Part shown: positions 36,376-64,000 of the stretch, piece by piece
Position numbering within the stretch: the first letter of the stretch is position 1
Layout: every line of letters starts with the position of its first letter
NCBI GenBank assembly: GCA_964463045.1
Contig: CAYXAU010000007.1
Location: 39,916-103,915 of the forward strand
Source of the DNA: an uncultured Candidatus Sumerlaeota bacterium
GTDB taxonomy: Bacteria > Sumerlaeota > Sumerlaeia > MVZB01 > JAJFLK01
DNA length: 64,000 nucleotides
Direction: 5' to 3'
Made by a program: the position numbers and the translations under genes
Notes under the pieces: model-generated
Told to the model about the DNA's origin: nothing
Database searches by the model: none
Seen by the model: only the letters and a program-made list of their open reading frames with translations

Positions 36376-37563
36376 GTGGGTGAACCCATCCGCATCGCCT
36401 ATATGATCGGTTCCATGCGACGCGGCGGCGCCGAAGGCCAGGTCGTCGAGCTGCTGCGGCATTTCAACCAGGGCGACTTCAGGGCCTCGCTCTATCTGCT
36501 GGCCGAAGCGGGAGAACATCTGGAGACGGTCCGCGCGATCGGCGCGCGCGTCCGCGGCTTCGACTTCGAGCGCCGCCACCGTTGGTATGATCCTCGGCTC
36601 GGTTGGCACGTCTTCAAGACCGTCCGGCGCATTGAAGCCGCCCTCGGCGAGGACCAGCCCCAGATCTTTCACGCCTTCCTTTACTGGGCCAACGTCCTGG
36701 GGGCGTGGGCGGCCTCCCGGGCGCGCGTTCCCTGCGTCATCGCGAGCCGACGGAGTCTGGGTTTTTTCAAGGACGGCCGGCCCTGGCTCCAAAGCCTGGA
36801 GAACTGGGCGAACGGCCGCGTCCATCGCGTAACGGTCAATTCGAAGGCGGTGCTGGAGGACGTGCTCGCCCGCGAGCGGATCCGGAGCGAGAAAATCCGC
36901 CTCATTCACAACGGGGTCGCCGTTGAAGCGACGCCGCGTCCGGAGGAAATCGCCCCCTTCCTCCGGAACCTGGGCCTTTCGCCTGAAAGCCGGGCCGGGC
37001 TGAGTCTGATCGTCTGCGTCGCCAACCTCATCCATTATAAAGGGCATCAGACGCTGATCGAGGCGATGGCCGAGGTGGTCCAAGCCCTCCCGAACGCCCG
37101 ACTGATCCTCGTCGGGCGGGACGGCGGGATGGAGGCGGCTCTGCGCCGCCGCGTGACCGAGTTGAACTTGGAGCGCGCGGTCATCTTTGCGGGGCCCCAG
37201 TCGGCGCTTCGACCCGTTTACGCCGCCGCCGATCTGGTCGTCCTTGCGTCGGATGAAGAAGGCTTCTCCAATGTGATTCTGGAAGCCATGGCGGCAGGCC
37301 GGGCCATCGTCGCCACGGCGGTCGGCGGCGTCCCCGAAGCGATCGAGCACGGTCGCCAGGGGTTGCTCGTCCCCCCCCATGATCCGACGAGCCTCGCCCG
37401 CGCCATCATTGAAGCCTTGCGGGAGGCCGGGCTGCGGGCGCGGCTGGGGATGGCCGCGCGCGAACGCGCCTCGGGCGAGTTCTCCCTCGATCGCATGCTG
37501 GCGGCTCATGAGGCGCTTTACCGCGAGTGCCTGCAGTCGGCCGCCGGGGGGCCTCACGCCTGA
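36376..37563 (+). CDS. Glycosyltransferase family 4 (GT-B, retaining)
   Basis: N-terminal RIAYMIGSMRRGGAEGQVVELL Rossmann start. C-terminal GT4 EX7E-type region (EGFSNVILEAMAAGRAIVATAVGGVPE). Confidence 0.8.
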   Translation: MGEPIRIAYMIGSMRRGGAEGQVVELLRHFNQGDFRASLYLLAEAGEHLETVRAIGARVRGFDFERRHRWYDPRLGWHVFKTVRRIEAALGEDQPQIFHAFLYWANVLGAWAASRARVPCVIASRRSLGFFKDGRPWLQSLENWANGRVHRVTVNSKAVLEDVLARERIRSEKIRLIHNGVAVEATPRPEEIAPFLRNLGLSPESRAGLSLIVCVANLIHYKGHQTLIEAMAEVVQALPNARLILVGRDGGMEAALRRRVTELNLERAVIFAGPQSALRPVYAAADLVVLASDEEGFSNVILEAMAAGRAIVATAVGGVPEAIEHGRQGLLVPPHDPTSLARAIIEALREAGLRARLGMAARERASGEFSLDRMLAAHEALYRECLQSAAGGPHA

Positions 37564-38324
37564 TGGGCGAGCGAAGGCCCCGACGCTTCGGCGCGCGCCG
37601 GAGGGGAGCCGATGCCTCCCGGACGGTGGCCGGCGGCTTGAGCCTTGTGCTTTACGATCTCGACGGAACCCTGGTGGACGCCTTTGAGGACATCGCGGCG
37701 GCCTTGAACCACGGGCTTCGCGAAGCAGGCCTGGACGAACAGCCGATCGAGCGCGTCCGGGCCTGGGTCGGCGACGGAATCCTTCGCCTGGTCGAACGCG
37801 CCGCCGGGCCGGGGAACCGCAATCGCGCTCGGGAGATCGTCCCCGCCGTGCGGGCTTACTACAACGCCCACGCGACCCGAACCGCTCGACTTTATCCGGG
37901 CGTCAAGGCGACGCTCCGTCGTCTGCGCGTCTCCGGACTGAGGCAAGCTATCCTCACCAACAAGCCGCACGACGTGGCGCTAACGAGCTGCGATCGTCTG
38001 GGGCTGACCCCCTTGGTCGACGCGATCCAGGGAGAAACCTCCGGGGCCCCCCTGAAACCCGACCCCCGATCGGCCCGCCGCCTGATCCGCCGCCTGAAGG
38101 CCACCCCCGCCGGCACGGTGATGGTCGGCGACGGCCCCGCCGATCTCGCCTTGGCCAAGGCCGCCGGGATCGCCATGATCGGTTGCGCGTGGGGAACGAC
38201 CCCACGGCAACGCCTGCTGGCGGCGGGGTGCGATGTCGTAATCGAGGCGATCGAGGAGCTGCCGGGGGCGCTCGAGCGCTTGCGGGACCGGACGCCGCCT
38301 CCGCGCTCGCGGCCGCTGCGATGA
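37563..38324 (+). CDS. HAD-superfamily hydrolase (phosphoglycolate-phosphatase-like)
   Basis: Motif I LVLYDLDGTLVD, motif II TNK and motif IV GDG..D. The start is placed at the ATG overlapping the GT4 stop (TGATG) rather than the upstream 37527. Confidence 0.75.
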   Translation: MGERRPRRFGARRRGADASRTVAGGLSLVLYDLDGTLVDAFEDIAAALNHGLREAGLDEQPIERVRAWVGDGILRLVERAAGPGNRNRAREIVPAVRAYYNAHATRTARLYPGVKATLRRLRVSGLRQAILTNKPHDVALTSCDRLGLTPLVDAIQGETSGAPLKPDPRSARRLIRRLKATPAGTVMVGDGPADLALAKAAGIAMIGCAWGTTPRQRLLAAGCDVVIEAIEELPGALERLRDRTPPPRSRPLR

Positions 38325-46336: not shown

Positions 46337-47830
46337 GTGAGGAGCGAACGGATTCCAGCGGCGCAGGGCGTGTTCCCGACCCGGTCGAGAACCGACCTCC
46401 GGGACGTCCTCATCCTCGTTCTGGCGACGATCCCGGCGTTGATCTCGGGCGCCGGGCCCGCCCGGGCGCAATCCCCGACGCCCAACATCGTGATCCTCCT
46501 GGCCGATCAGATGCGCGGGGACGCGATGGGATGCGCCGGCCATCCGGACGTGAAAACGCCCCACCTGGACCGTCTGGCCGCGCAGGGAATTCTAGTGCCG
46601 AACATGTTCGCCAACGCCCCGGTCTGCTCCCCGGCGCGGGCGACGATCCTGACCGGCCGGTATCCCAATGAGCACGGGATGATCTGCAACGACCTGCGGC
46701 TGCGCGAAAGCGAGATCACGCTGGCCGAGCATCTCAAGGCCCGCGGCTACCGGACCGGCTTCGTCGGCAAATGGCACCTCGACGGCGGTCCGCGACAGCC
46801 GGGCTTCATCCCGCCCGGGCCGCGACGGCAGGGGTTTGACTTCTGGGCGGCCAACGAGTGCAGCCACGCCCACTTCCGCAACCAATACTTTCGGGACGAG
46901 CCGACCCCGATCGTCATGGAGGATTACGAAACGCGCGTCTGGACCGACCGGGCCATCGAGTTCATCGGCCGCGCCGGGCGGGAACCTTTCCTTCTGGTCG
47001 TGGCCTATGGGCCGCCGCACGACCCGTACCGCGCCCCGGAGGACTTCCGCGCTCTTTATGACGCTGAGCGACTCACGCTCCCGCCCAACTGGCAGGAGGG
47101 CGCCGTCACGCGGGATCAGCTCGCTCATTATTACGGCATGATCAGCGACCTGGACGCTCAGGTGGGCCGATTGATGGCGGCGCTGGACGAGCGCGGGCTG
47201 GCCGAAACGACCATCGTCTGGTTCACCTCCGATCACGGCGACATGCTGGGCGCTCATGGGATGCGGCTCAAACGCAAACCGTGGGAGGAATCGATACGCG
47301 TCCCGGGCATCGTGCGCTATCCCGCTCAAGTCCCGGGCGGCCGCCGCCTGGCCGGCTTCGTCTCCCACGTCGATATGGCGCCGACGCTCCTGGGATTCTG
47401 CGGCCTGGAGATTCCGTCGGCCGTCCAGGGCTGGGACCTGAGCCATCATCTCCGCGGCCTGACCGACCATGCCCCCGATTACGTCCTGCTTCAGCAATTC
47501 ACGCCGGAACCCACGACGGGCCTCGAACGCCCGTGGCGGGCCGTCCGGACGCCGACTCATCTCTACGCCGAGCGAGCCGACGGCCCGTGGCTCCTCTACG
47601 ACCTGAGCAACGATCCGTATGAGCTGACGAATCTAGTCGCGCGACCCGAGGCCGCGGGGATCAGGAGCCAGATGCAACAGCTTCTGACGCGGGCAATGCG
47701 CGTGGCGCTCGACGCCTGGGAGCTCAACGAGGATGAGTTCCTGGAAAGCAACCGCGCCCTGTACAGCGAGTGGGCGTTTTACTCCCTGGACGAATATCGC
47801 CGGTGGAAAAAAGCCGCCGAGGCCCCGTGA
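46337..47830 (+). CDS. Cys-type sulfatase (arylsulfatase family), secreted
   Basis: Signal peptide. PNIVILLADQMRGD. Formylglycine motif CSPARATILTGRYP (C-x-P-x-R). GKWHLD. GTG start. Confidence 0.85.
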   Translation: MRSERIPAAQGVFPTRSRTDLRDVLILVLATIPALISGAGPARAQSPTPNIVILLADQMRGDAMGCAGHPDVKTPHLDRLAAQGILVPNMFANAPVCSPARATILTGRYPNEHGMICNDLRLRESEITLAEHLKARGYRTGFVGKWHLDGGPRQPGFIPPGPRRQGFDFWAANECSHAHFRNQYFRDEPTPIVMEDYETRVWTDRAIEFIGRAGREPFLLVVAYGPPHDPYRAPEDFRALYDAERLTLPPNWQEGAVTRDQLAHYYGMISDLDAQVGRLMAALDERGLAETTIVWFTSDHGDMLGAHGMRLKRKPWEESIRVPGIVRYPAQVPGGRRLAGFVSHVDMAPTLLGFCGLEIPSAVQGWDLSHHLRGLTDHAPDYVLLQQFTPEPTTGLERPWRAVRTPTHLYAERADGPWLLYDLSNDPYELTNLVARPEAAGIRSQMQQLLTRAMRVALDAWELNEDEFLESNRALYSEWAFYSLDEYRRWKKAAEAP

Positions 47831-54732: not shown

Positions 54733-55518
54733 ATGGGCGACCTGAGCGAGTTCCCCCTAAGCCTTCGCGTTTTTCTGAAGGCGTATCCGTGGCGGCGAGT
54801 CGACCCGGTGCCTTGGGCGCCGCTGGGCAAGCCGCTGGCGCGGTGCCGCTTGGCGCTGGTTTCGAGCGCCGGCTTTGTCCGGCCCGGTCAGCCCCCTTTC
54901 GACGACTCCCGTCGAGGCGGGGACCCCACCTTCCGCCAGATCCCCGCCGAGACCGACGTTTCGACGCTCATCGACTGCCACCGGAGCAAGGCCTTCGATC
55001 ACAAGGGGCTGCGGGAGGACCCCAACCTGGCCTTCCCGCTGGACCGGCTGCGCGAGTTGGTCGAGGCAGGGCGGATCGGATCGCTCAACGGGCGGCATCT
55101 TTCCTTCATGGGGTCCCTCACCGTCGTAGGACCCTTCATCAAGGAGACGCTGCCGGAGGCGGCCGGCTGGCTGGTTACCGACCAGGTCGATGCCGCGCTG
55201 CTCGTACCGGTCTGACCGATGTGCAACCAGGCCGTCGGCCTGGCCGCCGCCGAACTGGAACGCCGCGGCATCTCGACCGTGACCCTTCAGCTCCTGCGCG
55301 AGGTTGCCGAGCGCGTGCGTCCCCCGCGGGCTCTCTTCGTTCCCTTTCGTCACGGTTATCCATTGGATAGTCCCGGCGATCCGGCCCGCCAACGGGCGGT
55401 CATTGAGGCGGCCCTCAAACTGCTTGAAGACCCGGCGCTCAGCCCGCCGGGGCTGGTGGACTACGCGCCTGGGGCGGTCGATGACTGCGGCGAGCCTGGC
55501 CCCGCGGCGGCATCGTAG
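54733..55518 (+). CDS. Candidate selenoprotein, glycine/betaine/sarcosine/D-proline reductase selenoprotein-B-like C-terminal domain; in-frame TGA (Sec) at 55213-55215
   Basis: ORFs 54733..55215 and 55219..55518 share a frame and are separated only by TGA, yielding ...ALLVPV-U-PMC-NQAVG... (UxxC). The patterns LALVSSAGFV, HKGLREDPN, ELERRGISTVTL and FVPFRHGYPLDSPGD resemble the GrdB/PrdB C-terminal region as recalled from memory. A hairpin lies 11 nt after the TGA. Confidence 0.5.
55227..55243 (+). other. SECIS-like hairpin immediately downstream of the in-frame UGA
   Basis: CCAGGC-CGUCG-GCCUGG (6-7 bp GC stem, loop containing G and U) begins exactly 11 nt after the UGA, matching the spacing of bacterial SECIS elements. 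Confidence 0.3.
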
Positions 55519-56612
55519 ACTTCGATCAGTTGGTCAGCCTGCCGGCGGGGGTCGCAGTGGGTCAGCACCCATCGGCGCCCCTCGGCGGCCATCGTCTTCA
55601 TCTCCTGCCGATGATCGAGCGCCCAGACCAGAGCCGAGTGGAGCGCCGGAGCGTCGTTGACCGGGACGAGCAGCCCCGTGCGCCGATCCTCGACGATCTC
55701 ACGATTGCCCGCGCAATCGGTCGAGATGACGGGAACCTCCATGGCGAGAGATTCGCGCAAGACGCCGGAAAGCCCCTCGCGTTCGACGGCCGCAACGACG
55801 GTGAACTCGGCGATCGAAACGAAACGGGGGACATCCGTCTGGTGGCCCACGAACCGACACCGATCGGCGATCCCGAACATCTGGGCAATCGGGCCAATCC
55901 GTTCGGGCACCCCCCGACCGAGAAAGATCGCGTAGACGGCGGGGCGCGCGGCCATGACCTCGGCCATGGCCTTCAGCAGGCACCCCAAACCCTTGGCCTT
56001 TCGATAAGCCGACAGGCTGACGAGCAGTCGGGCATCGTCGGGCAGCCCCAACTCGCCCCTGAGGGTCACATCGGGCGGACGGGGGGCGAACCGTTCCGGG
56101 TCGACGCTACCATAGACGACTTTCGTCTTCCGACCCAGGCCCGGGACAGCCCGTTCCAGGGACTCCCGCACGGCCTCGGCCACGGCGACGATGGCGCGCG
56201 TGCGCGAGGAGGCGAAGACCCGCCGCATCCGCCCTTCAAGCGGCTTCTCGGTGCCCCGCTGCGCCACTAAGGTCGGACGCCGAAGCCCCCACAGGGCCCA
56301 CCAGGCCGCCCACAAGGCTTCGTCCCGATGGGCATGGAGAACGTCGGCCCGGACCCGTCGGGCCTCGGCGCGCAGTTTCCACCAACCCCGCGGATGCGCC
56401 AGATCCACAGCCCCCACCTCGATCCCGCCCTCCCGGAGCGGCTCCCAGCTATCCCAATCCTGCCGCCGTCGCTTGAGCGAAGCCTTGGGGTCGAGATTGA
56501 CGACGACGCGGACTTGGTGGCCCAGGCGGACCTGAGCCGTCGCCATCCGGATCAGTTGGACGGCCCCGCCTCGATGAACGCCAAAATGACTCGCCACGTG
56601 AACAATGCGCAT
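55461..56612 (-). CDS. Glycosyltransferase family 4
   Basis: MRIVHVASHFGVHRGGAVQ is a GT4 N-terminal Rossmann start. The C-terminus has E...E (EGLSGVLRESLAMEVPVISTDCAGNREIV). The 200-codon upstream extension in the ORF track (to 57212) is rejected. Confidence 0.8.
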   Translation of the reverse strand: MRIVHVASHFGVHRGGAVQLIRMATAQVRLGHQVRVVVNLDPKASLKRRRQDWDSWEPLREGGIEVGAVDLAHPRGWWKLRAEARRVRADVLHAHRDEALWAAWWALWGLRRPTLVAQRGTEKPLEGRMRRVFASSRTRAIVAVAEAVRESLERAVPGLGRKTKVVYGSVDPERFAPRPPDVTLRGELGLPDDARLLVSLSAYRKAKGLGCLLKAMAEVMAARPAVYAIFLGRGVPERIGPIAQMFGIADRCRFVGHQTDVPRFVSIAEFTVVAAVEREGLSGVLRESLAMEVPVISTDCAGNREIVEDRRTGLLVPVNDAPALHSALVWALDHRQEMKTMAAEGRRWVLTHCDPRRQADQLIEVYDAAAGPGSPQSSTAPGA

Positions 56613-56635
56613 ATGGGCGCCCGCTGCCCCTGGGT

Positions 56636-57781
56636 CTAGGCGGCGTTGGCCAAGGGAATCGAGGGCGCCGCATGGCCCGCCAATTCGAGCAACCGGCGGG
56701 CCATGCGTTCGGTGGCGCGGCCGGGATCGTGAAAAATATGGGCGGCGGTGGCCTGTCGCTCGGCCGACAGGCGCCCGGGCTCGGCCAACTCCTCCCGGAC
56801 GGCCGGGCCAAGCTCGTCGGCTTCGCCGATGATGCGCCCCATCCGGCGGCCGTGCGTCCGGGTATCCATCGCCGAGCCGGGCATCCGGTCCCGCTGGGCG
56901 AGCAGTTTGGGGACGTCGACGAAGATGATCGGCCGATCCAGCAGGCAGTACTCGTAGGCGACGGAGCTGGCGTCGGTCACGAGCAGGTCGGCGGCGGCCA
57001 GAAGCGGCGTCACGTCGCTTCGCGTCGCCAGGCGGGACCGTGCGCCCAACGCCGGACCGATTTCCGTCCAGAGCGCCTCCAGCGTGATTCCCCGCGGCAG
57101 GTGCGGGTGATCGTGGAGCTTGAGGATGAGGTTGAAGCCCGTGGCCTCCAGGGCTCGAACCCCCGCCAGGCCCAGCAGCTCGAAGCTGTTGTGACGCGCG
57201 CCGGTCGGGCACCAGAGGATCGTCGGGCGGCCCGGATCGAGGCCAAACGTCGAGAGAACCTCGTCGCGGCGGAAGGCGCCGTTGACGAGTCGATCGAGCT
57301 TCGGCATGCCGATGAGCTCCATGCGCGGATCGCCGGGTTCGAGGATTCCCCGTTCGAGGTATTGCTCCATCATGTAGCGGCCGGGGAAGAAGAGTTTGTC
57401 AAAAGCTCGATATTCGGCCGAGACGGCGAAATTGCGGAAGGAGACGCCGTGGAAGATCTGGACGGCGAGGCGGGCTCGGCGCGGATGAATCTTCCGGTCT
57501 CGATTGGAGGTGACGAAAACGTCGTAGGGGTAGGGATCGGCGCCGCTCGTACGAACCAGATGAGCCGGATCGACGTCGAACTCGCCGAAGAGCCGTTCGT
57601 TCCAGTACTGGACCCGCTTGGGGCGCAACCATCCGATCAGCGGCCGGCGCCGGTATCGCCCGGAGCTCAAGCCGAGCCCAAGGCCGGGAACGCGCCTCAA
57701 AAGCTGATAGACCGGCTCAAACATCGCGAAATTGACGCGATGCTTGCCGCAGAAAAGGATCCACGGATGTTTCAGGCCCAT
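56636..57781 (-). CDS. CDP-glycerol glycerophosphotransferase (TagB/TagF)-like polyol-phosphate transferase
   Basis: Size and pattern (PTILWCPTGAR, LILKLHDHPH, LLVTDASSVAYEYCLLDRPIIF) resemble the Glyphos_transf family. The family call is from pattern memory only. Confidence 0.5.
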   Translation of the reverse strand: MGLKHPWILFCGKHRVNFAMFEPVYQLLRRVPGLGLGLSSGRYRRRPLIGWLRPKRVQYWNERLFGEFDVDPAHLVRTSGADPYPYDVFVTSNRDRKIHPRRARLAVQIFHGVSFRNFAVSAEYRAFDKLFFPGRYMMEQYLERGILEPGDPRMELIGMPKLDRLVNGAFRRDEVLSTFGLDPGRPTILWCPTGARHNSFELLGLAGVRALEATGFNLILKLHDHPHLPRGITLEALWTEIGPALGARSRLATRSDVTPLLAAADLLVTDASSVAYEYCLLDRPIIFVDVPKLLAQRDRMPGSAMDTRTHGRRMGRIIGEADELGPAVREELAEPGRLSAERQATAAHIFHDPGRATERMARRLLELAGHAAPSIPLANAA

Positions 57782-57823
57782 CGGTGGGGGAGGGGAAGGC
57801 CGGGGCCTTGCGCGCCGAACCGA

Positions 57824-58897
57824 TCAATCCAGCGGATCATCGGGGCCGGCGGCGTCTTTCGTGCAGCCATCGCAGATCAGACCCTTCACGTCGCCGTTGA
57901 GAAAGCGACGTCGATAGTCGGTGTAGACCGGACCTCGCCAGAGGCGGTCCAGCGGCTCCTTCGAGAGGTCGCCGACGACGCCGGTCTGTTCCCAATCGGC
58001 GCAGCATTGGACGAGCCGGCCGTCGTAGAGGACGTAAATCTGTTCGAAGAGCCGATTGCACCAGTCGAACGTCTGGAGGGCGTGGACGGCGATCTCGTCG
58101 GCTTTGATGCCGCGATGATGGCCTCGGTTTTCCAATTGATTGACGTTGATCTTGACCCCGCGGGCCGCCCAGAAGGCGCGAATCTCGCCCAGCCGATCGT
58201 GAATGTCCGTCGTATCGAGCATGACCACGCGCACGCGGATCTTGTAGCCGCCCGATCGGGCCATCTCCAGAAACCGCTCGATGTTCCGGAGCACACGGTC
58301 CAGCTTGATCCCCATGATCTTCTCGTAGACGACCGGATCGATCCCCTGGACCGAGAAGTTGAGCCGGTCCAGCCCCGCCTCCAGAAGCCCCTTGGCCATC
58401 CGTTCGGTCAGGAGCCCTCCGTGGGTGTTGATCTTGGTGAACTGCCACGGCTGCTTGCGGCGCGTGATGTAGGCGACCCGTTCGGGGAGTTCCGGATCGA
58501 GCATCGATTCGTTCATCAAGTAAGGGGAGAACCGCCGGACGCCCAGATCGACGCACTGATCGACGATCGAGCGGTAAAGATTCCAATCCATCCGGCGTCC
58601 CATGGGGATCTCCAGCTCCGTCTTCTTGTTCGGGCAGAAGACGCAGTTGGCGTTGCAGCCGGAGACGGTCTGGATCTGGACGGCTTTAGGGGCGTCCGGC
58701 ATCGGCTCGCGCCGCTTGAGATGCCGCAACGTGAGGCGCTCAAGGAGATGCCGCGAAAGCTCGGGAACGTAATACTTGGGGGGCATCGGAGCCGGTTGGC
58801 CGGGACGCGCGGGCAGGCTCGGAGGCCGAGGGCGGCCTCCCCCGTCGCCGCGCGGTCGCCGAGCCGCCAGTCTAGGCACCGTGCCGACCGGCGGCAA
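57824..58897 (-). CDS. Radical SAM protein with C-terminal SPASM/twitch-like Cys cluster
   Basis: CNANCVFC (Cx3Cx2C) near the N-terminus. The C-terminus has CC...C..C (VQCCADWE...LICDGCTKD). The likely true start is the internal Met (MPDAPKAVQIQT). Confidence 0.8.
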   Translation of the reverse strand: MPPVGTVPRLAARRPRGDGGGRPRPPSLPARPGQPAPMPPKYYVPELSRHLLERLTLRHLKRREPMPDAPKAVQIQTVSGCNANCVFCPNKKTELEIPMGRRMDWNLYRSIVDQCVDLGVRRFSPYLMNESMLDPELPERVAYITRRKQPWQFTKINTHGGLLTERMAKGLLEAGLDRLNFSVQGIDPVVYEKIMGIKLDRVLRNIERFLEMARSGGYKIRVRVVMLDTTDIHDRLGEIRAFWAARGVKINVNQLENRGHHRGIKADEIAVHALQTFDWCNRLFEQIYVLYDGRLVQCCADWEQTGVVGDLSKEPLDRLWRGPVYTDYRRRFLNGDVKGLICDGCTKDAAGPDDPLD

Positions 58898-59030
58898 GGG
58901 CTTTCCCTCGCCGGGGGCAGCCCAATTTCATTGAAAGCGCGCGGGGCGCAAACGAAAATGACGCGCGAGAAGCGGGCGGGAAATCTGCCAGGGGCGCCCT
59001 GAGGCCGCCCCACGGTTGTAGGAGGGCATC

Positions 59031-59423
59031 ATGAGGAAGTGGCTTTCGGGGGCGATCGTCGCCGCCCTGATCGGCGTCGGGATGATCCTGGGGTCGGCCG
59101 CGCTGGCGCAACGTCAGCAGCGCGTCACGGTCGTGGGTGACGTGGTCGACCTGGTCGGCCTGGCCATGCGCGGCCAGGGGGGGGATTACACGGCCGAGGC
59201 GATGAAGTTCCGCGTCGAGCACGGGTTTCCCGTCGGCCTGATCGAAGAAGAATCGGGGGCGGTCTATCTGGTCGTTTACCGGGACCCGGCCCCGGCGGCG
59301 CATCTGGAGACGGCCAATAAGACGTTGCTCCCGTTTGTCGGCAAGAAAGTCGCCGCACAGGGGCGCATCTACGAGGGCAAGGGCTACAAGGTCCTCGAAG
59401 TCGCCATCGTCGGGGAATACTGA
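59031..59423 (+). CDS. Hypothetical small secreted protein (130 aa)
   Basis: Signal peptide MRKWLSGAIVAALIGVGMILGSAALA with GGAGGG RBS. No Cys. Ends ...AIVGEY. It is divergent from the radical SAM gene. Confidence 0.45.
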   Translation: MRKWLSGAIVAALIGVGMILGSAALAQRQQRVTVVGDVVDLVGLAMRGQGGDYTAEAMKFRVEHGFPVGLIEEESGAVYLVVYRDPAPAAHLETANKTLLPFVGKKVAAQGRIYEGKGYKVLEVAIVGEY

Positions 59424-59432
59424 GCCGAAGCC

Positions 59433-60530
59433 CTATTCGCTCGGCAGATCGGCGGTCCGAGCGGTCGGGTCCGACATGGGAGGGAGCGGCGCGCTGGGAA
59501 TCGGTTCGTACCAGAAGGTCGCCGCCGACCAATCGGCCTGCGTTTCGGCGAGCCCCTGGCGCCAGGCGATTTGCTGGATCGTGACACGGCATTCCCGACG
59601 CCAGAGGATCGGGTCGGGCAGGTGCCAGCGGTACATGGAGTGGAACCGGCCCTGGCTGAGGCTGGCGCCATGATAGAGGAACGGCGTTTGTTGCAAACCG
59701 TAGGATAGGCCGACCCAATCTTCCGTGCCGGTTCCGCAGAGGGTGGGGAAGTCCGTGTCGCCGTCCATATAGACCTTGATTTCCCCTTCGCCCCACCAGT
59801 CGTCGTCGAGTGCGCGCACGCCAACGACGGCGCCAAGGAATCGGCCCGGGCCGCGGCGTTGAGGCAGAAGGACGAAATCCTCCTTGGGCGTCGTCGGATT
59901 CTGCCGGTCGAAGCGGACGTGGAGCCGGCCGACGCGCCGGGGATGACGGTCGCCGAGCGTGTAATCGATCTGATAGTAGATCGTGACCGGCGCCTCAGTC
60001 TCGTTGGTCAGCGTCAGGCGCGCTCGGCGTCGGAACGGCATGGGGAGCCAGATGTTGAGGCCGGCGCGCTCGCCGACCGAATGCGCGGCCGATTGATAGG
60101 CCATGACCTTCCCGTGAGCAAAGCCGAAGAAGTCCCCCAGGGGGCATTCGACGCTCGGGTGGGCCTGATCGTCCCAGTAGGCGCGAATCACGAAAGACCG
60201 GAGGGTTTGGGGCCGGCGATCGCCGAGGGTGAGCCAGATGTGCCGGATCGTCCCGGGGCCCTGGATATCGACCAAGTCGACGGTCTCGCCCGGCTCGAAG
60301 CGCCGGTTCGGGGCCCCCTTGCGGCCGACCCCCAGCCGGCTGGCGGCGCGCCCGCCCATGCCCGGCTCACCGGTCGGATTCTCGAAGGAAATCGACCGGG
60401 AGAAGGCGCGGGCCTCGAGCCGGTAAGGTTCTTCAACGTAACTCTGCCCATGAGGGGGGACGGCGCAACCGCCCAGGCCCAAGCTCACGGCCCAAGGCAA
60501 GAACCCACGAACCATCCGGGCGCGTGACAT
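59433..60530 (-). CDS. Secreted DUF2961-like protein (GH172-like beta-jelly-roll family)
   Basis: Signal peptide. Motifs IWLPMPF, TLCGTGTEDW and YRWHLPDPI resemble DUF2961. This is from memory of the family. Confidence 0.55.
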   Translation of the reverse strand: MSRARMVRGFLPWAVSLGLGGCAVPPHGQSYVEEPYRLEARAFSRSISFENPTGEPGMGGRAASRLGVGRKGAPNRRFEPGETVDLVDIQGPGTIRHIWLTLGDRRPQTLRSFVIRAYWDDQAHPSVECPLGDFFGFAHGKVMAYQSAAHSVGERAGLNIWLPMPFRRRARLTLTNETEAPVTIYYQIDYTLGDRHPRRVGRLHVRFDRQNPTTPKEDFVLLPQRRGPGRFLGAVVGVRALDDDWWGEGEIKVYMDGDTDFPTLCGTGTEDWVGLSYGLQQTPFLYHGASLSQGRFHSMYRWHLPDPILWRRECRVTIQQIAWRQGLAETQADWSAATFWYEPIPSAPLPPMSDPTARTADLPSE

Positions 60531-60589: not shown

Positions 60590-61807
60590 TCACCCGGCCT
60601 CCATCAACAGATAGAGCCGAAGGAGCTCGTTGGGGAAAACCCATTCTCCCCGGGAGGCACCGGGCCGCAGCCCACCCAATTTCTTCATCCGTTGAAGGAA
60701 GCTATTGAGTTTGCGCTTTTCGCTCTCGCTCAGCCGCCTCTCGACGTCGGCTTTGCTGAAAGAGAGACCGACGTCCATCGCGCCGATCTTCTTCAGGATG
60801 GAATGATAATCCGCGCTCCGCAGGGCGTGTTGAATGGACGCAAAGTATTTTCGTCCGACGGCGTCGGCCGCCGCCAGGATGCCCAATTGGGCCACCTCCG
60901 GCGTAATTAGATGGGCCTGGGATCGCCAAAAGGTCTGCTCCCCGATCTCATGCATCAGCTTGGGCTGGCCACCCGCCCAGCGCGCCATGAGCCCCAAGGC
61001 CTTCTTTTCCACCCTGAAACCGACGCTCTGGAAGGCTTTGACGTAGAACGCCTTGACCTGGACCTCCTCCAAGGGGCTGATCTCGGCGATCTGGAAGATG
61101 CGGGCGATCGAAGGCTGATGACGAATCATCTCTTCGCGCCGCTCGGGGGCGCCCGTGAGGATCAACAGGAGCGGCAGGGGCCGGCCGCCGACCGCGATCT
61201 CGGCAACCGTGCTTTTCAGGAGACTTGCGAATCGCGGTTCGGAGGTAATTCCATTCAAGTCATCCAGGACCAGAATCATACCGGCATGATGCTCAGCCAA
61301 GGAGAGATGGATCTGACGAAGAAACCCGAGGAAACCGCGGGACATTTCGGCGGCGTCGCGGCGAACGGCCTCCAGGTTCAGCGTCACGCCGAATAGGGTG
61401 AGTTCTTTGACGTAGCGACCCAACAAGCCGCGAAGTCGATCGAACTGCCCCCGGGAATGCGCCTGCTGGACGACGCTGGAGACGACCTGGCCGATCATTT
61501 CCTCAAGGGTCGCAACGCCCCCCAGGAAGACGTGAAAGCCCGTCAATTGGCATTCGCGCTCGGCCGCTTCGCGCACAAACGCGGCCACCGAGCTCTTGCC
61601 GATCCCGTACTCGCCGGTGATGAAAACGTTCTCTTGCTTGCGGAGAGCGACCTGCCGAGCCGCCCGCATGATCATCTCGACTTCGGCCTCTCGCCCCACG
61701 AAGAGCTCGGGTGGGACCGGCCGCCCCGGGCTAAAGGGACTCCGGTCCTTCGGGATGGCCTGGTCCCGGCGGCCGGGCCCGCCCCCCGTGAACTGGCTCC
61801 TCCTCAT
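60590..61807 (-). CDS. ATPase_2/Arch_ATPase-type P-loop ATPase (orphan STAND-like ATP-binding protein)
   Basis: N-terminal FVGREAEVEMI followed by Walker A GEYGIGKSS and Walker B ILVLDDLNG. Length is 405 aa. Confidence 0.6.
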   Translation of the reverse strand: MRRSQFTGGGPGRRDQAIPKDRSPFSPGRPVPPELFVGREAEVEMIMRAARQVALRKQENVFITGEYGIGKSSVAAFVREAAERECQLTGFHVFLGGVATLEEMIGQVVSSVVQQAHSRGQFDRLRGLLGRYVKELTLFGVTLNLEAVRRDAAEMSRGFLGFLRQIHLSLAEHHAGMILVLDDLNGITSEPRFASLLKSTVAEIAVGGRPLPLLLILTGAPERREEMIRHQPSIARIFQIAEISPLEEVQVKAFYVKAFQSVGFRVEKKALGLMARWAGGQPKLMHEIGEQTFWRSQAHLITPEVAQLGILAAADAVGRKYFASIQHALRSADYHSILKKIGAMDVGLSFSKADVERRLSESEKRKLNSFLQRMKKLGGLRPGASRGEWVFPNELLRLYLLMEAG

Positions 61808-63794: not shown

Positions 63795-64000
63795 GGGTGA
63801 GGCTCTGTCAGGTTCGGTTCGAGGGACGGGCCCGCGGCCGGTCGGCCCGGTCCGCCCGTCACGCCTGTCGATGGGCCGGCGGGAACCGTACCAAAAAGCC
63901 GGAGAGGGTTCAAGCCCGCGGCGCGACCGAGCGGCCTCGGCGGCCGACCCGCCCCCGGGCGTCGCCCCGTCGGCGGCGCGAATCGGATTATTTCGATGCC

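Follow-up and report, generated by a model that had tools for sequence, protein, structure and literature searches.

What does a radical S-adenosylmethionine (SAM) enzyme do among genes for glycan-type surface chemistry? The question is raised by a locus of an uncultured Candidatus Sumerlaeota bacterium (assembly GCA_964463045.1, contig CAYXAU010000007.1), where a radical SAM gene is followed on the same strand by genes for a TagB/TagF-like phosphotransferase and a family 4 glycosyltransferase (GT4), while a gene for a small secreted protein reads away from this trio. The whole stretch of DNA that was analysed, 64,000 nucleotides in length, is referred to here as the window. Of several possible answers we favour, with a probability of roughly 55%, one where the three genes form an operon that would build or decorate a membrane-associated envelope glycoconjugate, with the radical SAM enzyme, a BtrN-like protein, predicted to tailor a sugar or cyclitol unit. 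The initial annotation, which had been made from the sequence alone, also proposed a surface-polymer or glycoconjugate module, and this proposal is supported, and strengthened, by synteny that is conserved in related loci. Two attractive readings offered alongside it, that the enzyme is an anaerobic sulfatase-maturating enzyme (anSME) or a maturase of a ribosomally synthesised and post-translationally modified peptide (RiPP), could be removed for this window and are effectively excluded.

Gene organisation of the locus

The locus comprises the following features, where CDP stands for cytidine diphosphate.

57824..58786, minus strand: radical SAM enzyme, 320 residues (Pfam Radical_SAM and SPASM; start according to homologues and public gene calls)
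56636..57781, minus strand: TagB/TagF-like CDP-alcohol-dependent phosphotransferase, 381 residues (Pfam Glyphos_transf)
55461..56612, minus strand: GT4 glycosyltransferase (GT-B, retaining-type family), 383 residues (Pfam Glycos_transf_1 and Glyco_transf_4)
58787..59030: divergent intergenic region of 244 bp, presumed promoter of the three-gene operon (from gene positions only)
59031..59423, plus strand: secreted protein with a predicted OB-fold, 130 residues, judged to lie outside the module

All four open reading frames (ORFs) are present as initially described, with Pfam matches above cutoffs for the minus-strand genes and a consistent codon-position signature. The gaps within the trio are 42 bp (radical SAM to TagF-like gene) and 23 bp (TagF-like gene to GT4), which fits transcription as one operon. 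The GC content at third codon positions (GC3) is 0.80–0.85 in each of the four genes and exceeds that at first positions (GC1), in a genome of 67% GC, so that we regard all four as real genes. A plus-strand ORF of 776 residues at 56672..59002, which overlaps the TagF-like and radical SAM genes in antisense orientation, has the reverse relation (GC1 of 0.81 above GC3 of 0.68) and is for this reason considered a shadow ORF of the kind typical of high-GC genomes rather than a gene.

The extent of the radical SAM gene required adjustment. The maximal ORF (57824..58897) exists as annotated, but the coding start is most likely the ATG at 58786 (MPPKYY), which is the start in homologues and in public gene calls. 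The 37 codons that precede it in the maximal ORF are probably untranslated, being an extension upstream of the true start.

A relative of BtrN with a twitch-like C-terminal domain

The radical SAM protein matches Pfam Radical_SAM (PF04055) with 69.6 bits (cutoff 29.5) and carries the CX3CX2C motif that defines the superfamily as CNANCVFC (C44/C48/C51), which is invariant. It had been labelled a radical SAM/SPASM enzyme, and the Pfam SPASM model does match above its gathering cutoff (40.6 bits), but only part of that label stands. SPASM enzymes have 7–8 C-terminal cysteines that bind two auxiliary clusters (bioRxiv 10.1101/2023.10.20.563219), whereas the protein from the window has only five (C243, C261, C262, C305 and C308) and lacks the CX2CX5CX3C motif, so that assignment to the SPASM enzymes with two auxiliary clusters was rejected. 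The Pfam model still matches because it spans the half-domain shared by both types. All eight cysteines of the protein are invariant in 82 of 82 family members, which range from 34 to 100% identity.

The spacing of C243, C261, C305 and C308 is 18/44/3. In a profile built from 26 sequences, C187, C232 and C235 of BtrN (chain numbering) align onto C261, C305 and C308, with C243 lying 18 residues upstream of C261; the fourth BtrN ligand, which was not itself aligned, we take to be Cys169, and this would give a spacing of 18/45/3. With five invariant C-terminal cysteines, four of them spaced as in BtrN, rather than the seven or eight of SPASM enzymes, the family is, on its cysteine pattern, twitch-like, with one extra invariant cysteine in a CCADWEQ motif.

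Searches against solved structures point to the same relative. The 26-sequence profile found BtrN first (E 4.4e-19), with both the core and the C-terminal domain covered and the C-terminal stretch aligned at an E-value of 1.5e-7; MoaA followed as the second-best match (E 3.6e-6). BtrN also came first in a search with the single sequence (8.6e-10). An AlphaFold model of the enzyme, with a predicted local distance difference test (pLDDT) score of 88.8, had BtrN as its top Foldseek match (E 7.6e-13, TM-score of 0.76 on the target), followed by DesII, MoaA, SuiB and BlsE. None of the 23 NCBIfam matches found at E-values up to 0.01 reached a family cutoff, the highest scores being about 55 bits, for MoaA and a metalloenzyme-maturase subfamily whose cutoffs are 231–400. 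MoaA itself (GTP 3',8-cyclase) was rejected as an identity, the respective equivalogs scoring 48–55 bits against cutoffs of 231–325.

BtrN is the 2-deoxy-scyllo-inosamine dehydrogenase of the butirosin pathway (PDB 4M7T/4M7S). It converts a cyclitol alcohol into a ketone, and its twitch domain contains one auxiliary cluster, ligated by four cysteines (PMC10337720). Both proteins combine a radical SAM core with a twitch-type C-terminal domain, and the three aligned cysteines together with the fourth, 18 residues upstream, would match a single auxiliary cluster in the enzyme from the window. The two differ in that identity is only about 20%, in that the enzyme from the window has one more invariant cysteine and, at its N-terminus, about 35 additional conserved residues, and in genetic context, which is an aminoglycoside cluster for BtrN but envelope glycoconjugate genes here. 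DesII and BlsE, radical SAM enzymes acting on nucleotide sugars, are high structural matches that likewise have carbohydrate substrates. However, neither gave a significant sequence match in the searches of solved structures, their auxiliary domains are built differently, and both belong to antibiotic pathways.

The suggestion that the enzyme is an anSME started from the Cys-type sulfatase encoded about 10 kb away. That gene is indeed present (46337..47830, with CSPAR at residue 97), yet the role as its maturase is exceedingly improbable: the anSME model TIGR03942 is absent from the 23 NCBIfam matches, the count of C-terminal cysteines is that given above rather than that of SPASM enzymes (bioRxiv 10.1101/2023.10.20.563219), the first anSME appears only at rank 20 of the Foldseek list, and no sulfatase occurs among the annotated recurrent neighbour families of the 82 related loci described below.

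The host had been described as PVC-like. This could not be upheld, all named close relatives of the radical SAM protein being from Sumerlaeota/BRC1.

Genes that recur beside the radical SAM gene

When one genome per species was scanned, 507 relatives of the radical SAM enzyme emerged, and 80 loci were fetched. ORFs were called and clustered and the recurrent clusters annotated. The calling relied on the filter of GC3 above GC1, which is imperfect (9 loci are without a called radical SAM gene), so the counts given here are approximate; they were cross-checked by tblastn. Glycosyltransferases, phosphotransferases and transporters are the recurrent neighbours among 82 non-redundant loci, with a glycosyl- or phosphotransferase within 300 bp of the radical SAM gene in 38 and within 6 kb in 45.

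GT4 is the partner that recurs most consistently. It adjoins the radical SAM gene in Sumerlaeota, in Desulfobacterium (Desulfobacterota), and in Aquificales, Deferribacteres and Acidobacteriota. These flanking glycosyltransferases are 28–52% identical to the GT4 of the window, and their identities co-vary with those of the accompanying radical SAM proteins to the window enzyme (Pearson 0.83, n=19).

The complete trio also recurs, in several arrangements. In one locus with a radical SAM enzyme 76% identical to that of the window (L096), it is reordered as TagF-like gene, radical SAM gene and then GT4 on the opposite strand, while another (L162, radical SAM enzyme 57% identical) has an operon with the order radical SAM, GT4, TagF and nucleoside triphosphate (NTP) transferase. 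The operon of Aquificales and Deferribacteres runs GT4, TagF-like gene, NTP-transferase and radical SAM, its TagF-like protein being 33–38% identical to that of the window. In Desulfobacterium the GT4–radical SAM pair is located within a locus for lipopolysaccharide (LPS) core and lipid A (KdsB, a Kdo kinase-like protein, Wzy_C, GT9, a lipid A acyltransferase, LpxK and LptFG), with a TagD-like cytidylyltransferase and a TagF-like gene 2 kb from the pair. In one Sumerlaeota locus, a gene for a PLD-type phosphatidyltransferase lies downstream.

A different type of neighbourhood is found among distant family members from Gemmatimonadota and Cytophagia, where the radical SAM gene has a fused NTP-transferase/CDP-alcohol transferase on one side and a second CDP-alcohol transferase on the other. 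By far the top NCBIfam match of the fused protein is NF041135, the bifunctional inositol-1-phosphate cytidylyltransferase/DIPP synthase (IPCT/DIPPS), with 231 bits and an E-value of 2e-68, below the cutoff of 580. The cluster also holds a Wzx-like flippase, an MMPL transporter, MlaC, an outer-membrane efflux protein (OEP) and DUF3047; it is complete in three loci (L076, L079, L085) and partial in four more (L069, L070, L074, L083), which come from Gemmatimonadota, Cytophagia and unclassified metagenome-assembled genomes. Judged by its gene content, it looks like a dedicated pathway for making and exporting a head-group-modified lipid.

This arrangement invites a different view of the enzyme, namely that it supplies the alcohol-phosphate precursor itself, for example by an NAD-independent radical route from a sugar phosphate to a cyclitol phosphate or ring-contracted carbocycle, which would then be CDP-activated and transferred by TagF-like or DIPPS-like enzymes. 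The position of the gene between IPCT/DIPPS-like and CDP-alcohol transferase genes agrees with this, and no inositol-phosphate synthase was seen among the annotated recurrent neighbour families (singleton ORFs of these operons were not scanned). There is also a precedent in calditol synthase, a radical SAM enzyme that makes a carbocycle from a hexose head group (PMC13459092; bioRxiv 10.1101/2023.10.20.563219). However, BtrN, the closest relative that has been characterised, is a dehydrogenase and not a cyclase, and the enzyme co-varies with GT4, its most consistent partner. We consider a precursor-forming role improbable and retain the preference for a tailoring enzyme.

The TagF-like and GT4 partners

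The TagF-like protein scores 57.1 bits against Glyphos_transf (PF04464; cutoff 22.1 bits), which places it in the TagB/TagF family. With a profile of the protein, the best match among solved structures was Cps3D (PDB 8qoy, 2.2e-14), with further matches to TarL and TagF; in each case it is the C-terminal domain that aligns, and the donor-site motifs PT, K-x-H and SD-SS-x-x-E/D-Y/F are conserved and aligned to all three. An FHG motif is invariant where the N-terminal catalytic histidine is expected, though HMMER left that histidine unaligned. With 381 residues the protein is shorter than TagF, TarL and Cps3D (583–1149 residues), having instead the length of the TagB, TarB and TarF models (362–388 positions). 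It reached no NCBIfam cutoff, and the TarF, TarL and TarB equivalogs scored only 16–19 bits against cutoffs of 500–1000. Chemistry of this type had been called unexpected for a Gram-negative organism, but TagF-like enzymes are already known from Gram-negative capsule synthesis, Cps3D (PDB 8qoy) being an example.

For a reciprocal test, 80 metagenomic loci with TagF-like relatives of 32–58% identity were fetched, 28 of which have at least 3 kb of flanking sequence on both sides. Among these well-flanked loci, a GlmU/IPCT-like NTP-transferase occurs within 3 kb in 19 and a GT4 in 4. In the sole annotated locus of its type (L161, 4778..10095), an MsbA-type ABC exporter is encoded between the TagF-like and NTP-transferase genes, and a similar gap of about 1.8 kb separates the two in several other loci. 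The recurrence of the NTP-transferase leads us to predict that the stable core on the TagF side is one of activating an alcohol-phosphate as a nucleoside diphosphate (NDP) or CDP derivative and then transferring it. From the gene arrangements, the radical SAM–GT4 pair would be a partner that joins this core in some lineages, that of the window included. As the orthologous TagF-like genes, unlike those of teichoic acid synthesis (TagF/TarL), are paired with a GlmU/IPCT-like enzyme and not with TagD or TarI, their context suggests that this subfamily may use a CDP- or NDP-alcohol donor other than glycerol or ribitol.

The GT4 protein matches Glyco_transf_4 (56.6 bits) and Glycos_transf_1 (79.2 bits), both above cutoff, as expected for the family, and reached no NCBIfam equivalog. 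Its nearest solved structures are BshA, PglA, PimA, to which it aligns over the full length, and WaaG; the match to the MshA model is weak (47 bits against a cutoff of 462). By these comparisons it is classed as a generic GT4. A second GT4 gene, followed by one for a HAD-family hydrolase, is found at 36376..38324 on the plus strand, about 18 kb from the module.

Proposed role of the operon

On the reading that we favour, the TagF-like enzyme would transfer an alcohol-phosphate from a CDP-activated donor to an acceptor hydroxyl, so forming a phosphodiester, and the GT4 would add a sugar, the product being a glycolipid or a molecule of the LPS-core type. The donor would be made by a cytidylyltransferase of the kind encoded next to this gene family in other loci, though not in the window. 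SAM would be cleaved at the CX3CX2C cluster of the radical SAM enzyme, and the resulting 5'-deoxyadenosyl radical would take a hydrogen from a carbinol carbon of the unit, be it a sugar or a cyclitol, with the single auxiliary [4Fe-4S] cluster accepting the electron. Dehydrogenation to a keto group would be the most likely outcome, although an epimer, formed via the extra invariant Cys262, may be the product instead. The hydrogen abstraction would not depend on oxygen. The domain families, the cysteine pattern, the closest relatives, the spacing of the genes and the recurring neighbourhoods are observed; donor, acceptor, exact reaction and order of steps are as we infer them.

A comparable logic applies to calditol synthase (Cds) and to the hopanoid enzyme HpnJ, both of which are radical SAM enzymes remodelling a sugar head group of a membrane lipid. 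Unlike in the scheme above, both of these contract rings, and no sign of such chemistry was found for the enzyme from the window. In a 2026 review of lipid-modifying radical SAM enzymes, which has a section of its own on hopanoids, calditol synthase is treated as a head-group enzyme; the shared logic is that a lipid first receives its sugar from a glycosyltransferase, the sugar then being remodelled by a radical SAM enzyme (PMC13459092).

An inositol-type alcohol is the leading candidate for the substrate, which we put forward as a lead and not as a finding. It derives from three features: distant family members have IPCT/DIPPS-like partners, BtrN acts on a cyclitol, and the GT4 enzymes resemble PimA and MshA. 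All scores in these comparisons are below equivalog cutoffs, and no IPCT/DIPPS gene occurs in the window.

Several observations weigh against an envelope-tailoring operon. Glycan and lipid genes are absent within 6 kb in about 37 of the 82 loci, and the neighbours are different ones in several Sumerlaeota relatives. The link is also weak when viewed from the other side, with a radical SAM gene in only 2 of the 28 well-flanked TagF-side loci. No cytidylyltransferase or other NTP-transferase and no inositol-phosphate synthase could be found in the 64-kb window, and the inositol lead depends on homologues that are only 34–38% identical. Substrate and activity have been assigned for no member of the family, the tailoring role being a prediction.

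Some of these observations would also be accounted for if the enzyme were independent of its neighbours and served some other cofactor or metabolite pathway, with the adjacency to TagF-like and GT4 genes incidental. The contexts are indeed varied, including housekeeping genes (RecR, DnaX and thiolase in L054, L056 and L058) and, in L004, FG-GAP proteins and a B12 radical SAM enzyme flanking the gene, and the same 37 of 82 loci lack a glycosyl- or phosphotransferase within 6 kb. Incidental adjacency is nevertheless difficult to reconcile with an orthologous GT4 that adjoins the enzyme, in several gene orders, in Sumerlaeota, Desulfobacterota, Aquificota, Deferribacteres and Acidobacteriota, or with the CDP-alcohol enzymes that adjoin it in Gemmatimonadota and Cytophagia; from the frequency of GT4 genes, we infer that the GT4 adjacency is far above chance. 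We therefore think independence unlikely and continue to prefer a tailoring role within an envelope glycoconjugate operon.

Carbohydrate-tailoring radical SAM enzymes are known mostly from antibiotic pathways, together with two cases involving lipid head groups (calditol and the hopanoid cyclitol ether). The present enzyme, an uncharacterised BtrN relative, would represent this type of enzyme in a new and widespread envelope context. Its family is found at more than 500 loci in species-representative genomes, mostly metagenome-assembled genomes of uncultured lineages, from Sumerlaeota, Desulfobacterota, Aquificota, Acidobacteriota, Gemmatimonadota and other phyla; no cultured isolate was found to carry it. 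Its links to glycosyltransferases, CDP-alcohol transferases and lipid exporters suggest that envelope glycolipids or LPS undergo an oxygen-independent modification that has so far gone unrecognised. No report was found in the literature that describes this family, or that ties radical SAM enzymes to CDP-alcohol transferases, to CDP-inositol or to TagF-like enzymes in LPS. Identification of the product would bring to light a new component of the envelope and place twitch-domain enzymes in a new reaction context. A far-reaching version, which we regard as doubtful, is that the enzyme is the first recognised member of a widespread twitch family which, without oxygen, creates modified head groups of the cyclitol or sugar type in envelope lipids or LPS (candidates are an inosose, an amino-cyclitol, an epimer and a carbocycle), with the TagF-like partner using a CDP-cyclitol donor. 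To our knowledge, CDP-cyclitols are not an established substrate class of the TagF-like family.

The divergent secreted protein

The 130-residue protein encoded on the plus strand has, as initially stated, a hydrophobic N-terminal leader of the secreted type, no cysteine and the C-terminus IVGEY. A word-indexed homologue search returned only the protein itself, whereas an exhaustive HMMER scan of 1.84 billion proteins found 62 distant representatives at E-values up to 1e-3, mostly of 120–140 residues. The 12 closest aligned homologues end in -EY or -EM, while more distant ones differ. In the AlphaFold (AF2) model (pLDDT 89.5) the leader helix is followed by a beta-barrel, with the C-terminal EY closing the last beta-strand. 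Structure matches to this model are all weak and only to OB-folds (SSB, RPA and the periplasmic YgiW). The protein is thus confidently predicted to be a folded, secreted OB-fold domain from a small and sparse family, not a precursor peptide.

These results bear on the proposal that the C-terminal Glu/Tyr of this protein is crosslinked by the radical SAM enzyme, acting as a RiPP or protein maturase. The two genes are divergent neighbours and the -EY terminus is conserved in the closest homologues, but co-conservation, which had been suggested as a check, is lacking: when the related radical SAM loci gathered by that stage were searched by tblastn, none except that of the window gave a homologue of the small protein, and the one homologue on a contig long enough to reveal its neighbours has no radical SAM gene alongside. 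The predicted fold is not that of a leader-core peptide, and the radical SAM enzyme contains no Pfam domain of the RiPP recognition element (RRE) or PqqD type. Maturase models score far below their cutoffs (PqqE 26.2 bits against 381; ScmE/ScmF and WgkB 19–27 bits against 400–650). We consider such a maturase highly improbable.

Just past the small ORF, on the minus strand, lie genes for a GH172/DUF2961 protein (59433..60530, 235 bits) and an AAA_16/STAND-like ATPase (60590..61807). No tie of either to the module was seen in the related loci.

Other genes near the module

Genes for S-adenosylhomocysteine hydrolase and SAM synthetase are found on the source contig 5–7 kb past the window end at 64000 (locus L006, 2062..4679), a proximity to the radical SAM operon that is possibly coincidental.

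On the other side of the module, a plus-strand gene of the GrdB/PrdB reductase family (54733..55518) has PrdB as its best NCBIfam match (77.6 bits, below cutoff). Gene callers split it into ORFs of 160 and 99 residues at an in-frame TGA (55213-55215), which falls within a UxxC motif (V-P-V-U-P-M-C). This codon is followed, from 14 nt onwards, by a perfect 7-bp hairpin (CCAGGCC-GUC-GGCCUGG), although the folding energy of the region is no better than that of shuffled sequence (z -0.42). The gene probably encodes a selenoprotein with an element resembling a selenocysteine insertion sequence (SECIS).

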